Assembly: GCA_965202585.1 (NCBI GenBank)
Contig: OZ241826.1
Coordinates: forward strand, 100,812,001 to 100,852,274
Reading direction: 5' to 3'
Length of the DNA: 40,274 nt
Source: Thalia democratica
Lineage: Eukaryota
Shown here: positions 8,875 to 36,829 of the stretch, one piece after another
How positions within the stretch are numbered: position 1 is the stretch's first letter
Layout of the letters: each line of letters begins with the position of its first letter
Made by a program: the position numbers and the translations under genes
The notes under the pieces: model-generated
Told to the model about the DNA's origin: nothing
What the model saw: only the letters and a program-made list of their open reading frames with translations
Databases searched by the model: none

Positions 8875-9613
8875 GTAAGTATATAAAATTATTATTAAAC
8901 TTTTATTTTATGAGAATTACTTAAAAACTTTAAAAAGAGGTTATATTTTTTATTCTATTTTTTAACGCCTTGTATTTTTGTTTTGATTTTCTAATTTCTC
9001 TTTTTTTTCTAGTTTTTAAAAGCATACTAATCTATATTTATTAAAGATCGTTCAACAACAAACTTATATACATTTTTAAATATACTTAAGAATGTTAGTT
9101 TCACATTAAAATATCTTATATATTGAAGATTTTAGTATCTAAAGAAACTTTCTAACAAAAAATTCTGAACTAATTTAATTAACAACATCAACTTAAACGC
9201 AATATAAACAATTCAAATAAGATATGATTTTTTTATTCTTTTTTAAGACACTTTTCAATTTTGCAATAACAGTAATACAAGTTTTATAAATAATGCATAA
9301 CAGTCTTCACTATATAAAGTCTAGTTAAAAGTCTAAAACGTTGAATATAAATTACAATTAAAATAGTGTTTTTTTTTACTTAAGATAAGTTTTTTTAGTT
9401 TTATTATTTTGTTAACAAAAAAATAAAATCAAGTATAACTAAAAACACAAATCTCTAACATATACTATTGTTAACCATATTTAAACATAAAATAAGATAC
9501 AACACAATTATTTAACATGCTCTCTAGCTTTTTTTTAAGAATTTTTTTTTCTATTTTTGATTACTTCACTCTTAAGCTTCTCTGGTACAACAAAATATTT
9601 TAACCTAACCAAG

Positions 9614-10023
9614 GAAAACATACTTTGAATACATGCAATTTACTTTATTTTCAATAATAATTCTTAGTTTTGAAGAAAGAAATTATTAAATCACGACACA
9701 AATATAATCTATAAAGAGTATTTACAATCGTAAAGTTATATAAATACTAACATTAACTACGCGATGTAGACGTTTTCTTGATTCTCGAAACTAGAAAAAA
9801 ACGTTGAATTTAATCGTAACTTGAAACACAGTATAACTAATTCACCTACTAATCGACTAACGCGTATTTGAAAGACAAACGCAAATATATACGCATTGAA
9901 TTGAAATTAAATCCTTAAAATAAAATAATGTTTGTTATTAATACTAGAAGCACGTCACGAAAACTGCGTAAAACAGTTCACAACTACTCCTTTAAATGAA
10001 TTTTTCGCGTGAATACTGCGACA
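9614..10023 (-). mobile_element. LTR-like repeat copy (solo or orphan LTR)
   Basis: Collinear homology with 23914-24326 and 20283-20420. On the - strand it begins TGTCGCAGTATTCACGCG and has AATAAA near its 3' end. Confidence 0.7.
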
Positions 10024-10099: not shown

Positions 10100-12790
10100 C
10101 ACTTATGATCCGTAACAACCACAAAACTTTGCAACCCTTGTGGTTATACTTTGTCTGCTCTAAAGACCCTGCAATGTTGAGCGACTCTTCTGCAATTGCA
10201 TCATTATTTTTTTTATGCTCCATAAAAACCTTGGAGTTGCAAGTGTCACATTCTAACCAGTGGTGCAGCAGTCTGTAAACCAGCTACCGCAATTGCAGTG
10301 TTTTGTATATTGACAGCAGCCCAAGCCTTGCTTTGACCAGTCAGGTCTTAGATATGATTAATCTTGTACACCGTTTCGTTTTGAATCTATGATCATCCTT
10401 ATGATTCAATAAATGCTTGATTTAAATATTCTCATCACATGAGTTTATGTTTTAGACTGAAGAATCTCTAAAAGGTGACATAATTTTATGGAGTTTAGCA
10501 TAGTTTAAAACTAGATTTATTAGCCTAAACTAGCTCCGTATATTTGTGGCAGAATTTAAAATTAGGAATTTTCTAATGGAGTCAAAGTATTTCGACAATC
10601 GATCTATGCTCTAAGAACTTAAACTTCTTTGGATCAAGAATTATACCCGTTTTTCAGAACTTTTTGTACGAAATATACTGTCTCCACCCATGACACTCTA
10701 ACTCAGAAATCATAAAACGTAGTGTCACCTACACATCTTTTTTTTCTTTTCTTAAAAATCTTATAAAATAGCTACAAAACGACGATTTCAACCATCACCT
10801 ACCAATACAAAACCCTGTTGGACTCTAGTAGAACCTACTAAACGCAGTGACAAATGTTGTTAAAAGCTTATCATATTCTCTCACGGTAACTCCTTGATAC
10901 CCCTTCCACGCGTCTGTTAGTCTTTAACGTTTCTTATGGAAGTCTGACGCACATGTCTCCCTCTTGCAATACTTGTTAAGAGGTTAGAGATCTATAGTTC
11001 TTTTAGGTGACGCATATTGTTTCCTGACGATACCAGGTTATAAGTTCACTAAATAGGAGACGTTCTGAGACTTCTTATCCTTGTTAAGTTCCGCTTAATC
11101 TGCTTTTGCCAACGAATTTGTACGTGTGCCTGAGTATGAAAGGCAGGAGGTTCAGCAACGTCTTCTAAATAGATTTTAAAAAGGGGCCTACTTTTTTGTT
11201 TGAGCGGTTTATATGGACATACATAAAATGTAGAAGCTGCAGAAATTTTAATAGCCACTTACGCATCTTATTAATATTTGCAGTTATATCCTTGAATGGA
11301 AGCCTGCTTAGTTTGTCTAGAAATTCCTTTCTTGTTTGAAAGTTGCAGGTTACATCATGTGGGTTGAGCTTATTTTAATCTTTTTTTTTTCAAAATTGCA
11401 ACAAATTTAAGATGCTTATGAGACAGCTGAAAACCAATAATGGAAAAATATCTGTTAGAAATTAGGGGGCAAACCATTATTTTACACAAAAGATAAAATC
11501 CAGTTACTGAGTTACTAACATAAATAATACCATTGCACCTGACTAAATCATTCTTTAGAGATGTTCCACTAAAGTTGGTTTTAAAACACATAAAATTCTA
11601 ACTGGAATTTTAAGTAGCAGCCCGAGTTATGGTTGAAACAAGAAGCAAATAACTTATAACAAAACCAGAATCTTGAAAGATTGGACTGAGCATAAATATT
11701 AGCTAAGGCACTTATTTTAAAAAGTTATTTGTGCAGTATTTAGTAATTTTTATTGATGCACGTGTATGGTCTAAGGACTTGACATTACACAATATTTCAC
11801 AGTCAAGCATAATGTTGCTTTGGTAATTAACTTATTAGCGTGTAATAAAATTGTCCGGGTATCCTGTTGCATAAAAAAGAAACTATCATTTTTGGTTTTA
11901 ACAAAATTAATCTTCTATGACTGGTGCGCCAACAAGATAAACAATAACTAAAATGTTTTAAATTACGAGTTCCTTTATTTTTTCGAATAAATAGAATAAA
12001 TTTTTATAGCGTTGGCTAAGGAGTTGTCAACTTATCTCCTACAATAAATTTCTTTTTCTGACTTCGGAAACAAGAGATCGCTAATACAGCTTTTAATTGT
12101 ATTTCTGTCAATTTCTTTGCTTTCAATAACTAAAATTATTCGGAACGATTATATAGAAAATATATCTTCAGTTGTATGAACTTCTCTTTTTATGTTATTA
12201 CAATTGCAAGCATAATGCCATTTGTTGCCACTTCCATTTAACTTGTCACATTCTTTTTTACACATCCTAACTAACTGACTGATGTGAAGTTACAAGTTTC
12301 CGCTTTGCAGCGAACACGGGTTGCAAACAGTCTGCATAGTTTAGCATGGTCTTAATGCAAGCACTTCATTTTTGAACTTTTGACCCGAATTGCATCTTTT
12401 GTGACTGCTATTGACTCAATTAATTTAGAATAATGTTCTTCTGACATAGCCGTCAGCCTAGGATCATTTGCCATTATAAGTTTGCAAAGTTTGTCATGCG
12501 CGCATTGAAACATTGTATGCTTGTATTCTGGATGCTTATGTTTGACAGAGTTTCGAACCTCCCTTACCAGCGGACGATGTAGGCCATGCCTCATTGGTGA
12601 ACCTTAGTCGACTGTAGACCGAATCAATTTAGGTCCATTCTGTAATATTACAGCTTTTATGATCCATAGTCCTTTCATGTCCCGTTTTGGTCAAGAAGCC
12701 CAGAAACTAAATCACATGGTTAATCTAGCGTTTAATAGCAGCATCAATGAATTTAGAACTTTATTACAACCATTTTACTTTGATAAGATT
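10100..12790 (-). mobile_element. Degenerate Ty3/gypsy LTR retrotransposon internal region (gag remnants, protease, RT, RNase H; integrase absent)
   Basis: Hand translation across frameshifts gives protease ALANIYAQS (ADTGAQS-like, ~11685-11705), RT TDAWKGY (~10900-10918), LLTTFVTAF, RVQQGFVLVGDG, RCVGDT (xxDD site, ~10725), GIILDPKKF (~10635), TNIRS*FRLIN, and RNase H PDWSKQGLG (~10340), EESLNIAGSLEQTKY and VVTDHK (~10105). The order matches gypsy pol. Many stops and frameshifts. The upper (5') boundary is approximate. Confidence 0.92.
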
Positions 12791-13071
12791 AACTAAAGAA
12801 AATGTCCGTGTTTAAATATTTAATTAACAATTAAAAATCTGAAATAAAAACAGGTATAAATATAAAGACATATCTAATTTAAACATTGGTCTATAATAAA
12901 ATGAGCTAAAGTTAAACTACTCTACAATGACACAATAGTATGTCAATACGTTATTTCAGCTATCTTTAAATTTATTATACTCCAGATAATTTATTTTTGT
13001 AATAAAGTATTATATAAATTTAAAATTATCTTTACATAAAAGAGGTTCTTAACACATGTTTTTTATCACAG

Positions 13072-19698: not shown

Positions 19699-19951
19699 TA
19701 CACTTTTGGACACTTTTCCACGAAAACACCTTCGTACTAACGAAACGAAGGACACTTTTGCACGGCAACTCTTTTTCACGAGCGTCACTTTAGCACAATG
19801 GGACATATTTGCACGGCGTCACTTTCGTACGAAGGGTCACATTTGCACAGCGACACTTTTGCACGCAGGATAATTTTTGCATAAGAGACACTTTTGCACA
19901 CAAAGTCACTTGTGCACGGCGTCTTATTTGCATAACGACAATTTTTCACGA
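19699..19951 (+). repeat. Degenerate ~15-16 bp tandem array (G[A/T]CACTTTTGCAC-type)
   Basis: Repeated ttttgcac units seen directly. Confidence 0.85.
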
Positions 19952-20282: not shown

Positions 20283-20420
20283 TACGTATTCATTGAAAAA
20301 AATTAATTTCTAACAATAAAAAATGTTTGTTTTTTAATACTGGAAGCACGTCACGAAAACTGCGTAAAATAGTTTACAAAATCTGCTTTTAAATAAATTT
20401 ATCGCGTGAATACTGCGACA
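20283..20420 (-). mobile_element. Partial LTR-like copy (putative 3' LTR of the gag-CSD element)
   Basis: Homologous to the other two copies (ctggaagcacgtcacgaaaactgcgtaaaa...cgcgtgaatactgcgaca). On the - strand it begins TG immediately after a purine-rich tract aaaaacaaaagaaaa (20421-20435). Confidence 0.6.
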
Positions 20421-20663
20421 TTTTCTTTTGTTTTTATTTAAAATTAATGTTGTTTGCACAGATTTTAATAAACACAGACCTAGTTTTTTTCCCAAACCAG
20501 TTAAACAAAAGAACGACCAATGCCGCGGTTTTTCATTTTAATAATTAGTACTCATCCGAGAAACTGTATTACTTATTATCTCATCAAATACATAGTTGTC
20601 AAAAATTAAGATAGTACACAACATAAGGAAAAAGTAAAAATGATAGTCATTTAGTTATCTTCC

Positions 20664-20762
20664 GGCTTCTTGTACTCAGGCTTCTTGTCCTCGGGCTTCT
20701 TGTCATCGGGCTTCTTGTTCTCGGACTTCTTGTTCTCGGACTTCTTGTTCTCGTACTTCTTC
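20664..20762. repeat. 15-bp minisatellite, ~6.5 units (GGCTTCTTGTNCTCG)
   Basis: Direct repeats seen. The - strand reads (E)VREQE repeats in one frame or KK(P/S)E(D/N) repeats in another. Confidence 0.9.
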
Positions 20763-21899
20763 TTTTTCGATATTTGTTTTCAGCAGGAACGAGTTGTTTC
20801 GAATCGCTTGTTCTTCACTAAACTTCAAATTCAAAAATGTATCAAATTCACTTGTTGACATAGAAAATATTCGTCTTTTCATTGTTCATCATTGTAGTAT
20901 TCATTTGAAAAAACTTATGTATAAAAATATGCAGCTCAGAAAAATTAAATTGATTTTCTAACAAGAAAGTTCAGTAAAAGCTACTAAGTTACTATGCTAA
21001 AAGACAATAACGAAACTGTCAGTATTTAATTTCAAACCCATTATTTTATACAAAACAAAAACAAATTGAAGCATTTAAAGATGCATTGAATAGAAAATTA
21101 ATAGTTTGAAACACATGAAACATTTTAATTTTGTTTTTAACTTAAAAAAACATATTTTCTTAATATTTAACTCGCAAACTTTAATAAACAAAACAAAAAA
21201 TATTTTCTTTTAAGTATTTTACAAAACAATAAGTACTATTTTTATACACAAACTTTTATAGGATTCAAGTATAAACTATTTTTTTAAAGCGACACAACAC
21301 TTATGCATAATAAAAATTTTTAAAGAGAAAAATTTAGCGAGTGTTTTGTTTTTAATCGTTAAAAGTCAAAATTAAATGGGAGTTGAAAGTACTTTTAAAT
21401 TTAAAATTTATAGGAAAAATTCATTACAAGTCGAATTTAAAAGCTTTAAACTTTAACTTGATTATTTTACAAACAAAAAAATTGATAATTTAATTCTGTT
21501 TATAACTAGAGAAAATGTAGTTACTCAAGTTTTAATATGAAAACTAGGCTTAATAAACTTTTCTATTGTATAATTGTTATGTCGTAGCTTTTAACTAATA
21601 GTTCAATTACCAAACTGTAATTTAAAATATGAAAAACTTTATAACACATTATTAAAAGTAAAAAAGCTATAAAATTTTACAACTCAGAAATTTTATCAGA
21701 AAAGAATACAAAACAAACACATTTAGTAGTTTCTTGCAGTTTAATTTCTTAAAAACATAACCTGAGTTTGAAAATTTTTTAAATAGATTTTGATGCTAAT
21801 AAAAAATTACAATTTTTTACTTTTATTAAAGTCTGTTTTGTTAGTTTTGTGAAAATATTTATATTTTATCTTCAAAAGGGCTTTATGATAAATATTTAA

Positions 21900-23742
21900 A
21901 GTTTTACACCTGCTATAATTTATTCTGAGTCTTTTCATTCTGTGTTATAATTTATTTTTTGTTAAAGGAATCAAATACTGCCGAATTGTTTTTCTCTTTA
22001 GCAAACACGTTGCTCGATACACTAGTTTCTGATTTTGTTTTTAAAGAATTGTAACTGCCTGAGTCTTGTTTATAACTTTTAAGCTGCAATGTTGGCACCT
22101 TATGTTTTGGTTCGCTACCATATTTTTAATTGTAACTGCTATTTGTCTACTGTTGGTTATGATGTTTTCCTTTGCTGAGCTTACCTTGTTTTGCTGTAAA
22201 AGCAAAAGCTTGCTTATAAGCTCTAATAGCTTTTCTTTTCTGCTGTTGGGGATTACTTGGATAATAGTTTCCGTTTAATCTTTTTTGTTGAAACGTTTGG
22301 TTGTAGTTTGAATTCTTATCTACAGCATACTTAGTCTCTTGAACTGTTTTACGATTAGGACCTGTCACGTTTGCGGTTTCTGACATGATAGTTTTACCTA
22401 CGACAATATCAAACTGGAGCTTTTCTCCTTGTGCAAGAGACCTTAAGAATTAGTTCGGGTTGTTTTTGATGACAGCTGTAAAATGAACAAAAATAAAGCT
22501 GTTTCTATCATCACGATGAATAAAACCGTAACCTCTGTGAAAATAAAACCATACTATTTGACCAGTTAGTCCAATTGCTATATTGTTTTTTGGCTACCTG
22601 AGCTTTTTCTTTGACTGTTTGAAACTCTTTGGTTGTATTAGATGTTTTTTTAGGTAAGTGTTGATGACATGACAAATACTGTGCAATGTTAACACTTTTA
22701 CTACTGTTCCCATTGTATGATTTTCTTGGTTTAAATTTTCTCTAACTTGATTATGTTGACGATAATTGTAATTATGATTAATACCATTATCTCTTAAATG
22801 AAAATTTTGTTGATTATTAGGACAAACACGCTTATGGTAGTTTATTTTAGCCTTATAATGATTTTGCTCATACTGCTGTAATCTATCGTATTTAATTTGC
22901 TTAGGTATTAATGCGTTTTCTTTATAAGCATTCCATATGGCTTGTCCTTTTCTTTTAAAAACTTCTAAGCTTTCATTAAAATGTTCCATAATCTTATCTT
23001 TGATCGAAAATGGCATCAAGTATGCATGAAAAAAGTTAATTCTGTCCTGCTCTAGACATTTAGCCCAGCTTACGGCTGTTAAAAATATTTTATTAAAATT
23101 TTTAGGCTCATTCCATACTTGAACTTTATCTAAAATTTCAGCCAACTGATTGTCGCTATTAACAAAAAATTTAAAAAAAAAAAACTTTAATTTCTTTCAC
23201 CTCGTTCTGTCATTTTATAATAATCTGACAACTCTTCTCTTGGCCAAAACCAAATTAAAAAATTGTATTTCTCTAAATCGCTTACAATACCTTCGTCATA
23301 TAATTCCTGCTCAAAATAGTTTATCGTATCTCGAGGATTCTTTACAACGTCTAACCTCTTAAACTTTTTACTCAGTCTTTGCGCCTTTAATGCGTCGCTA
23401 AAGTTATTAAAATTATTGTGATTACCATTTTGTAACCATTGTAAAAAGGTTCGCGTTTTTCCAGCATCGCACGTTCGTAATGTTGTGATCTAGACTGCTT
23501 TAATCTATTATTTAAATTTTTAATTTTCTTTTGCAAAATTCTTAATTTTTCTTCAGTTGTTAGCTGCTTAACTTCGCTTGATTTTCTGAAATGTTGTTGA
23601 ATACTATTCGACGGCAAAATTTAATACCATTTTCAATCATTTATGCTCGATGATGGTTATTAAGATTGCGATCGTCATTGTTGTTCGTGTGCATTTCTTC
23701 TGTTGACTGCTCAAAGATTCCTAAACCAGAAAATTCAAGCAT
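21900..23742 (-). pseudogene. Disrupted gag-like ORF with C-terminal Y-box-type cold-shock domain and a basic/Gln-Asn low-complexity tail
   Basis: Starts at an ATG ~80 nt after the PBS-like site. Coiled-coil-like segment (EEKLRILQKKIKNLNNRLKQ), then NPRDTINYFEQELYDEGIVSDLEKYNFL (resembles the gypsy gag N-terminal capsid motif; moderate), then the 183-aa ORF 22594-23145, one TAG, and the CSD in the same frame. Several frameshifts and stops. The 3' end is approximate. Confidence 0.6.
22318..22575 (-). pseudogene. Cold-shock domain of Y-box (YBX1-like) type, intronless, one internal stop
   Basis: GLTGQIVWFYFHRGYGFIHRDDRNSFIFVHFTAVIKNNPN*FLRSLAQGEKLQFDIVVGKTIMSETANVTGPNRKTVQETKYAVD aligns almost residue for residue with the Y-box CSD ([81 protein letters not shown]). 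TAA at 22450-22452. Confidence 0.93.
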
Positions 23743-23819
23743 CTTAAGAGACACTGCGTTGTTTCCACTTTAACCAAATAAGTTATTGTATATAGTGGTT
23801 TATGTTTAAGGATTAGATA

Positions 23820-23830
23820 CGTGGCCTCCA
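23820..23830 (-). promoter_or_regulatory. Putative primer-binding site TGGAGGCCACG (tRNA-Thr-like)
   Basis: Complementary to a tRNA 3' end CGTGGCC-U-CCA. A U discriminator with a GGCC 5' end fits metazoan tRNA-Thr. It lies between the LTR-like sequence and the gag-like ATG. Confidence 0.55.
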
Positions 23831-24326
23831 GTAACTTACTTAACTTACTGCTATACTCACGAGTAATAAATAATATGCTATCAGTAAAACGTTATAAAGC
23901 TTATTTCTTGAATAAAACACACTTTGAATAAATGCAATTTACTTTAATTTTAATAATAATTCTTAGTTCTGAAAAAAGAAATTATTAAATCACGACACAA
24001 GAAAAATCTATAAAAATTATTTACAATCGTAAAGTTATTTAAAATACTAAAATCAACTATGCGATATAAACGTTTTCTTTTTTCTCGAAAATAGAAATAA
24101 ATGTTAACTTAAATCGTTACTTAAACGTAACGCGGAACAACTAATTCACCAACTAAGTAACTAAGCGCGTATTTGAAATACAATCGATAATATATACGCA
24201 TTAAAATGAATATTAACTCCTAACAATAACAAAATGTTTGTTTTTAATAAAAAAATGTTTTTTTGTAATACTGGAAGCACGTTATGAAAACTGCGTAAAA
24301 CAGTTTACATCTACCCCTTTTAAATA
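23831..24326 (-). mobile_element. LTR-like copy (putative 5' LTR of the gag-CSD element)
   Basis: 23914-24326 is homologous to 9614-10000. The segment 23831-23913 links it to the PBS and ends ...AAGTTAC on the - strand. The terminal ~25 bp (TG end) is missing. Confidence 0.6.
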
Positions 24327-24740
24327 AGAAAATGAAATTTTAATATCATTTCTTGTTTGTTAAATAATAAGAAATATTATTGTGTGTTCTTATTTGTTTT
24401 TTATCATTCAATTAGCTGATAAATTTAATTATTTTATCATTGCTTTTTAATAGTGATCTTTATTAAAAACGCTTGGAAAAGCCTTATAATAAATTAATGC
24501 TTTAACAAAATCATATGTTATTTGAAAATTGTTTTCGTAATGTAATATTGAAAAAGCAGGTGCTATCTTAAGCTCAAATTCTACGTAGCAGTATTTTTTT
24601 TTTAAGTTGATGAAAATAAAATTTTATATTGAATTTATTTTAATACTTGTATCAGAAAATAAAATCTGGAAGCACGCAAAATTGAAGCTCCATTCAAAAC
24701 TGACGGACTGTTTAAAATTTTTGCAGTGAATAAATATTTA

Positions 24741-25011
24741 CATGAAAATATAACGCCGTGCAAAAGTGACGCCTTGCAAAAATGTCGCCATAAGAATTTA
24801 AAGTTGTGCAAAAGTTTCGACTTGTAAAAATGTTGCCGTACAAAAATGCCGCCATGCAAAAATGACCCTACGAGCTAAAAAATCGCCATGCAAAAGTTTC
24901 CCTCGTGCTAAATTGACGCTCATGCAAAAGTGACGTTGTGCAAAAGTCTCCCTATATGCAAAAGAGTCGCCGTGAAAAAGTGTCCTCTCGTGCAAAAGTG
25001 ACTGCCACCTA
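24741..25011 (-). repeat. Degenerate ~15-16 bp tandem array, inverted relative to 19699-19951
   Basis: gtgcaaaagtgac units on the + strand, with the same ggcgtc/ggcgac-containing subtype as the 19.7 kb array. The outer end reads AGGTGGCAGTCACTTTTGCACG on the - strand. Confidence 0.85.
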
Positions 25012-27377: not shown

Positions 27378-28649
27378 GTAAGTAACAGACCAAAAATACA
27401 TTTAAACCAAAGAGTAAACTTAATTTTATAGAAAGTTAGATCAAACTAGTTTTTAACTTTTTTTGATATACTTGTTTTTTACTCAAATGATAAAGCTCAT
27501 GAAACCAGCTGCTTAGTTATTGATTTTGAGAGTTTTATAGTTGAGTAAGATCCTATTTGACATATTTAGGACAAATCTTTTTATAGTACTTAAACAAAAT
27601 ATTATACTTGGTTAGAGATGTTTTATGTTTTGCTTTACAAACCTCTTTGCAGACAAACTTATTTTTCTCAAATTAGCTTTTACTTGAAGATATTTTGTAC
27701 ATTTATGTAACTTACACAATTTAATTTACACAGTTTTAAAAATATTTTACAACCCTTAATAGACGTATAAGTTAAAAATCCTGTTGTTTAGACTTGTAAT
27801 AAAATCTTGGTTAAATGACAATTCAAGTTCGGACAATTCAAATTTTAAATAAGAAATCTTTAAGAGGCTATATCTCAAAAATTAATACATATTTTTGAAA
27901 AATAAAAAAGCGGTTTCAGGTCTAAAAAGGTTATGATTGTAAAAATAAACATTTTGAAGAAAATTAATATGTTTTAAAACTCGTTTTAGCCATAAATCAA
28001 AACAAATTACTAGTGTATATTTCTCTTTTAGTTTTGGCAATGTAAATGTTGACCGAATTGAATAAACTAGTTTTGGTAGACGTGTACGATTTGTTTTGAC
28101 TTTTTTCGAGCTTAACAAAAGCAATTGCTAAACAGCTTAATTGACATTAGTATGAAATATTGAGCATTGGAAACATTTATTTTTATATTTATTTTAGAGC
28201 AAAATACTGATTTAAATGATATTTAAAAATATAGTTAGTAAAAATACATGGTATAATCATTAGGGTAATAGTAACTAAATTCAAAAAACTAGAATAAAAA
28301 GCATTGAGCAAAATTTTTTCAACAATAGATCTGAAATATTAACTTAATAACTAAAAATGTTAAAAAAGTAAAAAAAAAAATACTTTAAATTTGATTGAAT
28401 AAAAATAACATGTCTGTAACACAACTTTAATAAAGTAAGTTTTAAAAAAGACCATCTAAAGCAGCAATTTGTTTGCAAAAACTCAAATTTTTACTATCAA
28501 TTTTCTAAAATGCCTATGGTAATTTATTGATAATGCGTTGTAAGATATTTTAATTTTCACGATGATTACAACAATTTTTTATGAAACAAGTTTTAGACTG
28601 TTACTGTATTTTAAGAACTAATTATTTTTTGACACTTTAATACATAGAT

Positions 28650-29245
28650 TAAAAAAATATACATATGACTAAAATTTCATAACAATATATATTTCATGCT
28701 TATTTTATTAGTTGTTTGCTAAGCAATAAAAATAAAGTTTCAAATCAAGCTTATATAGTAAAAATGTAATCAACGTAAAAGTAATAATATTAAAGCAAAG
28801 GATAATTAACAATACATTATTACCTCCAGTTACAATGCAGCTAAAAAATTAATAAAACATAGTTAAAACTTATAAAACAGTTTATGTAAACAACGAAACA
28901 GTATAATCAAAATCTTTATGTTAACACAATTTAGGTTTTCTTAACATGATAAAAATAGCCAAAAGTTTAAGTAAAACAGAAATTTTAAAACATTTTCTAA
29001 TACTTTTAAATCTTTTCAAGTTATAATTACTTGCACAATCAAGGTTGATAACTAGGTGTTCTGCAATTGCAGATCTTTTTGTAGCATTTACTACTCTGAT
29101 AGAATTAGTTTTCTTAATACTCATTTTACAAAATTCATCAATACTTTTTGGAACATGCTCCATTATCCTTTTGCCAAATTGTCTTTAAGTCATTCTGATA
29201 TAACTAGCTTTTCCAGTTTAACGGCTTTTGTGATATTTGTGCTTT
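28650..29245 (-). mobile_element. Penelope-like element 3' fragment (GIY-YIG endonuclease C-terminus plus 3' UTR)
   Basis: Translation SYIRMT*RQFGKRIMEHVPK...KRSAIAEHLVINLDCASNY...LRKPKLC matches the YIG...R..EH...SAIAEHL pattern of PLE GIY-YIG domains. Confidence 0.8.
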
Positions 29246-29284
29246 TGTTATATCGGTAGTTATATTATGTTATATTTTGTTCAA

Positions 29285-29780
29285 GATAATTTGATGAACT
29301 CTGTAAAATGAGTTATAAGAAAAGTAAATCTATCAGAGTTGTATATGATACAAAAATATCTGCTATTGCAGAACACCTAGTAAACAACCTTGATTGTGCA
29401 AGTAATTATAACTTGAAAAGATTTAAAAGTATTTAACATTTTTTTAACATTTCTGATTCACTTAAACTTGTGGCTATTTGTATTTTGCTCAGAAAACCTA
29501 AATTGTGTAAACATAAAGATTTTGATTATATTGTTTCGTTGTTTTCATAAATTGTTTTACAAGTTTTTACTATGTTTTATTAATATTTTAGCTGCATTGT
29601 AGCTGGAGGTAATAATGTTTTGTTAATTAACCTTTGCTTTATTATTATTACTTTTACGTTGATTATATTTTTACTATATAAACCAGATTTGAAACTTTAT
29701 TTTTATTGCTTAGCAAACAAATAGTAAAATAAGCATGAAATATATTTTGTTCTGAAATTTGAGTCATATGTATATTTTTC
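29285..29780 (+). mobile_element. Second Penelope-like 3' fragment, inverted relative to the first
   Basis: Reverse complement aligns to 28650-29150 (roughly 85% by eye) and encodes SAIAEHLVNNLDCASNYNLKRFKSI. Confidence 0.8.
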
Positions 29781-30059
29781 TAAAGAATTTATAACTATTT
29801 TTATAAAATAAAAAGTGAATATTTTAAAAGATTTTTTAAAAATATTTTTAATGAAATATCTTAGTGAAAGTTAAAGTATTACACTCAAACAACAATTAGA
29901 AATAAAAGAAATTCATTTTATAGTTTTTTTAAATGTACTTGATCAATTTTAGAATCTATTTTAAATTTTTGTTCAAGGTTTTGTTTCTGAATTTCATATT
30001 GTAAATTAGTCTATTATTATATTAGAATATTTACAAAAATAAGTATAAATCATACATTT

Positions 30060-35797: not shown

Positions 35798-36065
35798 AGG
35801 TGTTATTAATTGCAATATGAAATGTTACGGTTAACATTTAAGATTGTTTTATATATGTTACATTTATTATCTCATACTAATTTAAGTTTTGTTTTGTTTT
35901 ACCCACATTAGATATTTGTTGCATTACTTACAAACAAATTTAGATGTTCTTATTTTATATAACAAATAATTTGTTTTTCAATATTTAACATGTGGTATTG
36001 CCTACAATTTAAATGTTGTATACTTATATAAAGATATATCAGATGTAAACGCATCTAAAGTCCAT

Positions 36066-36340
36066 AAAGACAAAATTGCACGAGGGTACTATATTGCACG
36101 AAGACAAAATAGCACGAAGAGTCAATTTTGCACAAAGATACTTTTTTAAAAAGACAAATCTTCACGAGGAGACACATTTGCAGAAAGACAAAATAGCACA
36201 AAGGGTCAATATTGCACAAACATACCTTAGCATCAAGACAAATTTGCACGAGGGGACAAAATTGCATGAAGACAATTTTGAAGCAAGGGACTATTTTGCA
36301 CGAGTTACATTTTTGCACAGAGGGTCATTTTTGCACGAGA
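36066..36340 (+). repeat. ~15-16 bp tandem array (AAGACAAAATTGCACG subtype)
   Basis: Direct repeats seen. They explain the ORF-track calls 36076+ and 36055-. Confidence 0.9.
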
Positions 36341-36673
36341 GCAAATAAAGAAAAAAAAAATAATGAAAATAAAAGATAAATTATTAAAAAACATAAATCA
36401 ATAAAAAGTTACTGATTTGGGATAAGCATAAGGGGTAACAGTGATAGTAAAAACAAAAATGAAAACATAAGTTATAAAAATATTTAAAAAAAATACAAGA
36501 AAAATAAATTAATTATAATAAATTAAAAAAAAGAAAAAAAAAACTACCCATCGAGGTTAAGGCTTAGGAGTAACAGTGATAGTAAAATTTTAAATAATTA
36601 ATTAGTTGAAAAAAAAACATAGTTAAAAGTAAAAAAAAACATATATAAATAAAACTAAATAAAAATTTTTACC

Positions 36674-36829
36674 CGTGCAAAAGTTTCTCTGTGCAAAAAT
36701 TCTACTAGTGCAAATATATCCCCTCGTGCAAAAGTGTCTTTGTGCAAAAGTGACCAATTGTGCGATTTTGTCTTTGTGCAAGAGAAACTTCATGCAATTT
36801 TGTCCGTTCGTGCAAAGTTGACACCTACC
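36674..36829 (-). repeat. ~15-16 bp tandem array, inverted relative to 36066-36340
   Basis: gtgcaaaagt / ttttgtcttt units. The outer end reads GGTAGGTGTCAACTTTGCACG on the - strand. Confidence 0.85.

Follow-up and report, generated by a model that had tools for sequence, protein, structure and literature searches.

A decayed Gag-CSD element on the minus strand

The window, by which we mean the whole 40,274-nucleotide stretch of Thalia democratica DNA analysed here, holds a decayed copy of an LTR element family of about 4.4 kb, F1. The element spans about 20290-24361 on the minus strand and thus exceeds the interval 22318..23742 assigned to it by an earlier sequence-only reading. From its 5' end, its parts are as follows.

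23769..24361, minus: decayed 5' LTR, outer end approximate (blastn to family LTRs, 72-81%)
Inner end of the 5' LTR, minus: TTTGGTTAAA adjoining the PBS (window sequence)
23750..23767, minus: decayed PBS for tRNA-Arg, with the LTR starting from 23769 (comparison with family PBS variants)
21859..23694, minus: decayed Gag-CSD ORF with 8 indels and in-frame stops; the ORF of unbroken relatives has 611 aa
22879..23399, minus: capsid (CA) domain, lower end estimated from the alignment (model and structure matches of a relative; Atlas Retrotrans_gag)
22714..22878, minus: truncated, N/Q/R-rich Gag tail without a zinc knuckle
22578..22713, minus: piece matching host YBX exon 1 (5' UTR and first codons), which unbroken copies read as a linker; contains the off-frame TAG
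22392..22577, minus: piece matching host YBX exon 2 (RNP1/RNP2 part of the CSD), with a stop at 22450-22452 in the window copy
22297..22387, minus: piece matching the start of host YBX exon 3 (CSD end, ANVTGP, Y-box extension), with weaker likeness on to about 22175
20421..21858, minus: 3' non-coding region that includes, at 20664-20761, a 15-nt tandem repeat
20290..20420, minus: 3' LTR remnant, first ~130 bases only, with a variant LTR start

The earlier proposal of a YBX-type cold-shock domain (CSD) behind a PBS and an LTR-like repeat agrees with this map: the GYGFI, IFVHF, KNNP and ANVTGP motifs are all present on the minus strand, a 47-aa piece of the window CSD matches Pfam CSD at E=4e-9, and the PBS (23750-23767) and LTR (23769 to ~24361) lie upstream. 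ARAGORN called no tRNA in the window. The same reading had described a dead copy in which a 183-aa ORF was separated from the CSD by a single TAG. The upstream frame runs for 200 aa from stop to stop (22594-23196, minus; 183 aa counted from TTG), the TAG is at 22594-22596 and the CSD motifs share its frame, but the last ~48 residues of that ORF and the TAG itself are off-frame text, because indels near 22738 and 22590 offset each other. Compared with an unbroken natural F1 copy, to which it is 87.7% identical over 1830 bases, the window copy has eight indels (near 23635, 23625, 23431, 23182, 22738, 22590, 21936 and 21879) and a second stop within the CSD (22450-22452), so it is indeed dead and is not a single frame broken by the TAG alone. 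The fusion itself is real in the family: unbroken copies read from Gag through a linker into the CSD in a single ORF, and this linker (..NIAQCLSCHQ.., straight into the CSD) differs from the one read in the window.

Elsewhere in the window, a second F1-type LTR at 9600-10022 (minus), with nothing next to it that matches Gag, pol or env, is probably a solo LTR, and the GC-richer stretch at 10100-12800, whose frames are short and broken and which matches none of the fetched loci, is perhaps a decayed DNA transposon. Arrays of TTTGCAC-type 16-17/34-nt repeats flank the element on both sides (19773-19916 and 24723-25002) and recur at 36063-36820; a 502-nt inverted repeat (90%) lies at 28640-29792.

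F1 is a multi-copy family that has spread recently

Searching the genome with the upstream protein yielded 653 candidates, 150 of which were scored, all at E<=2e-50 and many with open frames of 607-611 aa. Among the loci fetched are 38 distinct unbroken F1 ORFs of 600-615 aa; unbroken relatives carry one 611-aa ORF that fuses a Gag of predicted retro-capsid fold to a Y-box CSD, within copies 4.2-4.8 kb long. A scripted LTR scan of 35 F1 loci and 13 others, whose automatic end-finding missed some ends, located both LTRs in 29 copies, with 22 pairs at least 98% identical, three pairs identical, and a matching 4-bp TSD in 17 of the 29. The LTR termini are TGT...TTAAA and not the canonical TG...CA, which is frequent among LTR elements but not universal. 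Some family copies match the end of tRNA-Arg at 18/18 PBS bases, including the added CCA; the PBS pattern has 51 tRNA-like matches in the genome (control, 0), with tRNA-Arg called by ARAGORN at three of four PBS-matched loci, and the common F1 PBS is degenerate against this tRNA end. Downstream of the ORF lies a 1.4-kb 3' non-coding region, and no pol or env remnant was detected in a natural F1 copy. F1 has spread recently; its copies are dispersed, and many, including that in the window, are decayed. RNA runs gave only patchy contigs, possibly contaminated with DNA and with small shares for 7/8 RNA rows, and these are no proof of F1 transcription.

Two other arrangements were seen among the F1 loci. 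In L033 and L034 (G000:C5:64692000-64711999), at least five F1 units stand head to tail and share LTRs, and one F1 copy is interrupted, at L038:7153-8457, by an ORF for a reverse transcriptase of a different type (Pfam RVT_1, E=3e-11).

The upstream part is a retroelement capsid

An alignment-based AF2 model of the 174-aa Gag core of an unbroken relative has a pLDDT of 90, and its structural matches 1-28 in a search of 48,161 chains are all retro-capsid lobes, from Copia, Arc, PEG10, MLV, RSV, Ty3 and their kin. The best of them, Copia 8vvw (Z 8.4, rmsd 3.3, 81 aligned), has a modest Z and covers the first lobe, and the Foldseek top five are Arc CA at non-significant values (E>=0.27). Atlas assigned the capsid part to Retrotrans_gag at 0.94, whereas a query of CA plus CSD returned only scores under 0.8; Pfam has no Gag family matching F1 Gag or the parent Gag described below. 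The modelled structure thus confirms a retro-capsid fold for F1 Gag, in keeping with the gag-like capsid first suspected from a motif.

The CSD cassette matches the spliced mRNA of the host Y-box gene

The CSD of an unbroken copy matches Pfam CSD at E=6e-22, and its best match among solved structures is YB-1 (PDB 6a6j, 6lms; E=3e-33), followed by bacterial Csp (~1e-12) and Lin28 (~1e-7). As in these YB-1 structures, the element CSD retains the RNP aromatics and the C-terminal extension; in contrast to YB-1, it stands behind a capsid and keeps only the start of the long charged tail. The host-type motif pattern has one match in the genome, in an intact multi-exon YBX gene on contig C9. The match to this gene runs end to end over exon 1, with ~75 bases of its 5' UTR, then over exon 2 and into the beginning of exon 3; the element lacks both host introns (3.9 kb and 2.6 kb) and the optional small exon. 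For exon 1, an anchored alignment scored 86 in F1 against a shuffled mean of 49, with 0/1000 shuffles as high, and in the related family F3 only 4/1000 shuffles scored as high; in F2 the match was not significant (384 and 213 of 1000 shuffles), nor was an unanchored alignment for L007 (99 against a shuffled maximum of 104). These comparisons show that the cassette derives from spliced mRNA of the YBX gene in this same genome.

A tree built from 36 CSDs places all 14 sequences from elements together with the host YBX gene at 100/98. Oikopleura supplies the nearest named YBX (87/88), and since the RNA runs that contain the element come mostly from marine samples, a planktonic tunicate is the likely host. 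A single origin of the element CSDs has a tree support of only 55/86. A derived CLSCH motif, whose codons come from the 5' UTR, is common to F1 and F3 and suggests that YBX was captured once and then swapped between Gag lineages, a question that the CSD tree does not settle. The capture is old, dS relative to the host gene being saturated. Its structure fits LTR-mediated retroposition as set out by Tan et al. 2016 (PMC5131818): as in the retrocopies described there, an intronless, sense piece of host mRNA lies in frame between the two halves of an LTR retrotransposon.

The cassette takes the place of pol in several Gag lineages

The same genome contains autonomous relatives (P1, P2, P3, P4 and P5) whose Gag has no CSD. 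P1 consists of gag, a PR-RT-RH-IN pol and a third ORF, and P2 and P3 are gag-pol; the PR-RT-RH-IN order is seen in parents L057, L052 and L160, and we use Ty3/gypsy-type on the basis of this order and the Gag capsid fold. The third ORF of P1 and P5 has hydrophobic ends and conserved cysteines; its single-sequence AF2 model has a pLDDT of 36, Pfam gives a weak match to a rhabdovirus G fusion domain (E 0.2-0.5), and this env-like protein has no match among solved structures. A CHCC knuckle with the spacing CX2HX9CX4-5C is present in the Gag of P2, P3 and P4 and absent from that of F1 and P1; the parents of the F1 lineage function with neither knuckle nor CSD.

Two other families carry the cassette in different layouts. 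F2 corresponds to P2, but ~1 kb carrying the CSD stands in place of the gag end, its CHCC knuckle and the whole of pol. F3 corresponds to P3, with ~670 bases where pol was; here the knuckle is kept and the CSD lies in the -1 (pol) frame, following an A-AAA-AAC stretch common to F3 and its parent. Since F3 keeps its knuckle and would reach the CSD only via a frameshift, the CSD is not simply a replacement of the nucleocapsid. Among 118 Gag units in 126 loci (chosen by us and not de-duplicated), 81 have a CSD, 34 have pol and one has both, and in that one the pol piece is located beyond the 3' LTR. The cassette therefore sits where the parents carry pol. On a 33-row Gag tree, the CSD label requires six changes, at least four of them via strongly supported branches, and a single CSD clade is rejected (p-AU 1e-4).

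The F3 layout bears on one reading of the domain, namely that the CSD serves inside the particle as a chaperone of reverse transcription, in primer annealing and strand transfer, and not as a packaging hook. A CSD in the pol frame behind A-AAA-AAC would be made in the small amounts typical of Pol, provided that the supposed frameshifting works, and the common F1 PBS is degenerate against the tRNA-Arg end. However, helper RNA would gain equally from it, and elements with both CSD and pol would be favoured, of which none was seen within the 118 Gag units. We regard this reading as a live but improbable rival.

Relationships between F1 and its possible helpers are visible in chimeras. Four combine F1 with P1 (L035, and L036, L037 and L067, which retain the third ORF) and one, L206, combines F1 with P5, a sign of probable co-packaging with more than one helper. 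The nearest intact pol-bearing parents have 67-68% CA identity to F1, and neither a search via the full PBS (7 matches) nor one via the pol of L206 turned up an intact element that combines pol with the LTR and Gag of F1 itself. L206 had itself been considered as the pol-bearing parent and was rejected as a chimera with family P5.

The capsids of F1b, F2 and F3 are near-parental. Fv1 and Ty1 p22 are dominant-negative restriction factors, and a Gag without pol but with such a capsid could likewise act against the gag-pol(-env) parents and be favoured by the host. On the other hand, the Gag-CSD copies lie scattered, their TSDs fresh and their LTRs nearly identical, many are decayed, and their private variants are nearer neutral than shared ones, which together form the pattern of a selfish element; we therefore give host-favoured restriction little credence.

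Some parent and F2 loci have further features. The terminal repeat extends into the start of gag in L067, L102, L160, L164 and L174 (lineages P1, P2 and P3), which places a primer-like TGG site within the coding frame. At L101:1170-5675 (G000:C8:30230000-30239999), and also at L171:1828-8335, an F2 element was seen, the former with LTRs 99.6% identical and a 1502-aa ORF. The first ~860 aa of the L101 ORF match reovirus VP1 polymerase (PDB 7xr3, E=8e-42), and the frame continues from there into Gag-CSD; this RdRp-like piece, which has no match in the phage collection, is a dsRNA-virus segment captured by the F2 element.

Capsid and CSD are conserved together

For variants common to at least two copies among the 38 unbroken F1 ORFs, the capsid has a pN/pS of 0.19 and the CSD one of 0.30 (p=0.003; few variants, 13 N and 12 S), compared with 0.52-0.80 in the other four segments; because counts are small and transition bias is ignored, we take the tails as an internal baseline. 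The corresponding values in F2 (8 ORFs) are 0.09 for the capsid and 0.26 for the CSD, and F3 (7 ORFs) has zero shared CSD variants. Between families, the CSD has a dN of 0.21-0.26 and a dS of 1.2-1.9. By these measures, both capsid and CSD are under purifying selection.

Consistent with this, in 81 unbroken element CSDs the conserved W and the RNP2 F are present in 81/81 and the H in 80/81. Three positions are altered relative to the host: N-to-K in 81/81, Q-to-Y or H in 81/81, and K-to-V in 74/81. The first two lie near the RNA-binding face, and since they are altered in every copy, binding by the element CSD may differ from that of the host protein.

Alternatively, the CSD might be a passenger of no selective value, a processed copy of the Y-box gene that happened to insert in frame and then spread with the element. 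This has some precedent: LTR-mediated retrocopies are common and often in frame (PMC5131818), and an F2 copy has also taken up the reovirus-like RdRp piece. A single-copy pseudogene it is not, given a multi-copy family with 38 distinct unbroken ORFs under purifying selection. Moreover, 64-74% of residues are kept relative to host YBX despite saturated synonymous sites and a fall in GC3 from 0.76 in the host to 0.24-0.29 in the elements, and the cassette appears at six places on the Gag tree. We consider a passenger origin of this kind highly improbable.

Selection and recurrence also fit a role before packaging, in which Gag-CSD coats its own mRNA in the manner of Y-box proteins and either guards it against decay or silencing or halts its translation. 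YB-1 stabilises retroviral RNA (PMC6040738), and F1 RNA includes the 1.4-kb 3' non-coding region. Yet conservation of the capsid is no weaker than that of the CSD, which argues that particle assembly matters, and intact host YBX is available in trans, so that a private CSD needs an advantage in cis or in the particle. We judge a role of this sort unlikely, though it is the rival that we would take most seriously.

Related Gag proteins carry other RNA-binding domains

A profile search of 1.84 billion representatives returned 84 relatives of this Gag. One of them, P0056, from another source, has two KH domains at the place of the CSD (Pfam E=1e-17) and no knuckle. No Gag-KH fusion was found in the Thalia genome among the 71 scored of 890 candidates. 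The genome does contain an intronless 534-aa KH gene (L197:4305-5906) that is 44% alike to the KH part of P0056.

Frog proteins that combine PNMA and a CSD are already in databases as uncharacterised. P0044, P0047, P0049 and P0050 include such frog proteins as well as two long proteins, one from pika, with a terminal CSD; a frog CSD query found no long CSD-bearing polyproteins among 12 candidates, which counts as weak evidence. The frog PNMA-CSD proteins are altered at the same three positions as the element CSDs, and P0044, P0047 and P0050 have the same K-to-V before the conserved W. Two frog PNMA-CSD proteins stand apart from the element CSDs in the 36-CSD tree, and their domain seems to be a separate acquisition.

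A proposed satellite-like retrotransposon

The explanation that we favour, at slightly better than an even chance, is that F1 is a pol-less Ty3/gypsy-type element whose Gag bears a host YBX-derived CSD that likely binds the element's own RNA, so that this RNA is packed and copied in helper particles. In this scheme, YBX mRNA would have been co-packaged and its CSD captured by template switching during reverse transcription; the cassette would later have moved between Gag lineages by the same template-switch route, with pol removed each time. Gag-CSD would co-assemble with helper Gag and Gag-Pol, and the CSD, by holding the pol-less RNA, would give it an edge over the helper's own RNA. RNA binding, packaging and helper identity for Gag-CSD are inferred. 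YB-1 supports HIV, MLV and MMTV production through RNA (PMC6040738), which makes packaging by the CSD plausible without itself testing it.

A broader proposal, to which we give somewhat less than an even chance, is that these elements represent a satellite-like class of retrotransposons in which a portable host RNA-binding cassette repeatedly replaces pol, acquired separately as the Y-box CSD here, as the CSD in frogs and as KH domains in a related Gag, with pol-less RNA gaining in helper particles.

Zebrafish BHIKHARI is a Gag-only non-autonomous LTR element. Like F1, it and MaLR have LTRs and a Gag-like ORF without pol and are mobilised in trans; elements of this type are not known to carry a captured host RNA-binding domain. 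MaLR is named among Gag-only non-autonomous LTR elements in PMC5131818. F1 differs from the LTR-mediated retrocopies in the same paper in that its capture is old, present in well over 100 copies, selected within Gag and found in several element lineages.

The parents have known counterparts. P1 and P5 resemble the 'ancient errantiviruses', env-carrying Ty3/gypsy elements that include tunicate ones (Chary and Hayashi, PMC13524379), and Oikopleura Tor (PMC4402516) in gag, pol and a third ORF, whereas F1 lacks pol and env; neither 'cold shock' nor 'non-autonomous' occurs in these main texts. With the CsRn1/PwRn1 clade, as presented in PMC2582038, our elements share a CHCC-type knuckle (P2, P3 and P4), a 4-bp TSD and overlapping gag and pol frames. 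They differ from that account in the knuckle spacing (CX2HX9CX4-5C in P2-P4 against CX2HX9CX3C in CsRn1), in the absence of the knuckle from F1 and P1, in the third ORF of some parents and in the primer, which is tRNA-Arg in F1 and tRNA-Trp in CsRn1. An assignment of F1 to CsRn1 was considered and rejected, F1 having neither the CHCC signature nor the tRNA-Trp primer.

A targeted search of the literature found, among the papers covered, no description of a Gag-CSD element family. We describe F1 and its kin as non-autonomous Ty3/gypsy-type derivatives with a selected, recurring host RNA-binding cassette.

For annotation, a warning follows: hundreds of element copies swell the number of Y-box genes counted in such genomes. 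For experiment, one genome offers parents alongside their matched derivatives, the CSD being simply fused in one layout, fused with knuckle loss in a second and frameshifted in a third, and the long-noted link between YB-1 and retroviral RNA becomes testable with a domain already joined to Gag by evolution. These elements also allow one to ask, in a natural setting, what lets a retroelement without pol compete for the particle of its helper. Host genes captured by LTR elements are usually viewed as passengers or as something for the host to build on; in these elements a host domain is kept under selection, in the slot of pol and in several lineages.
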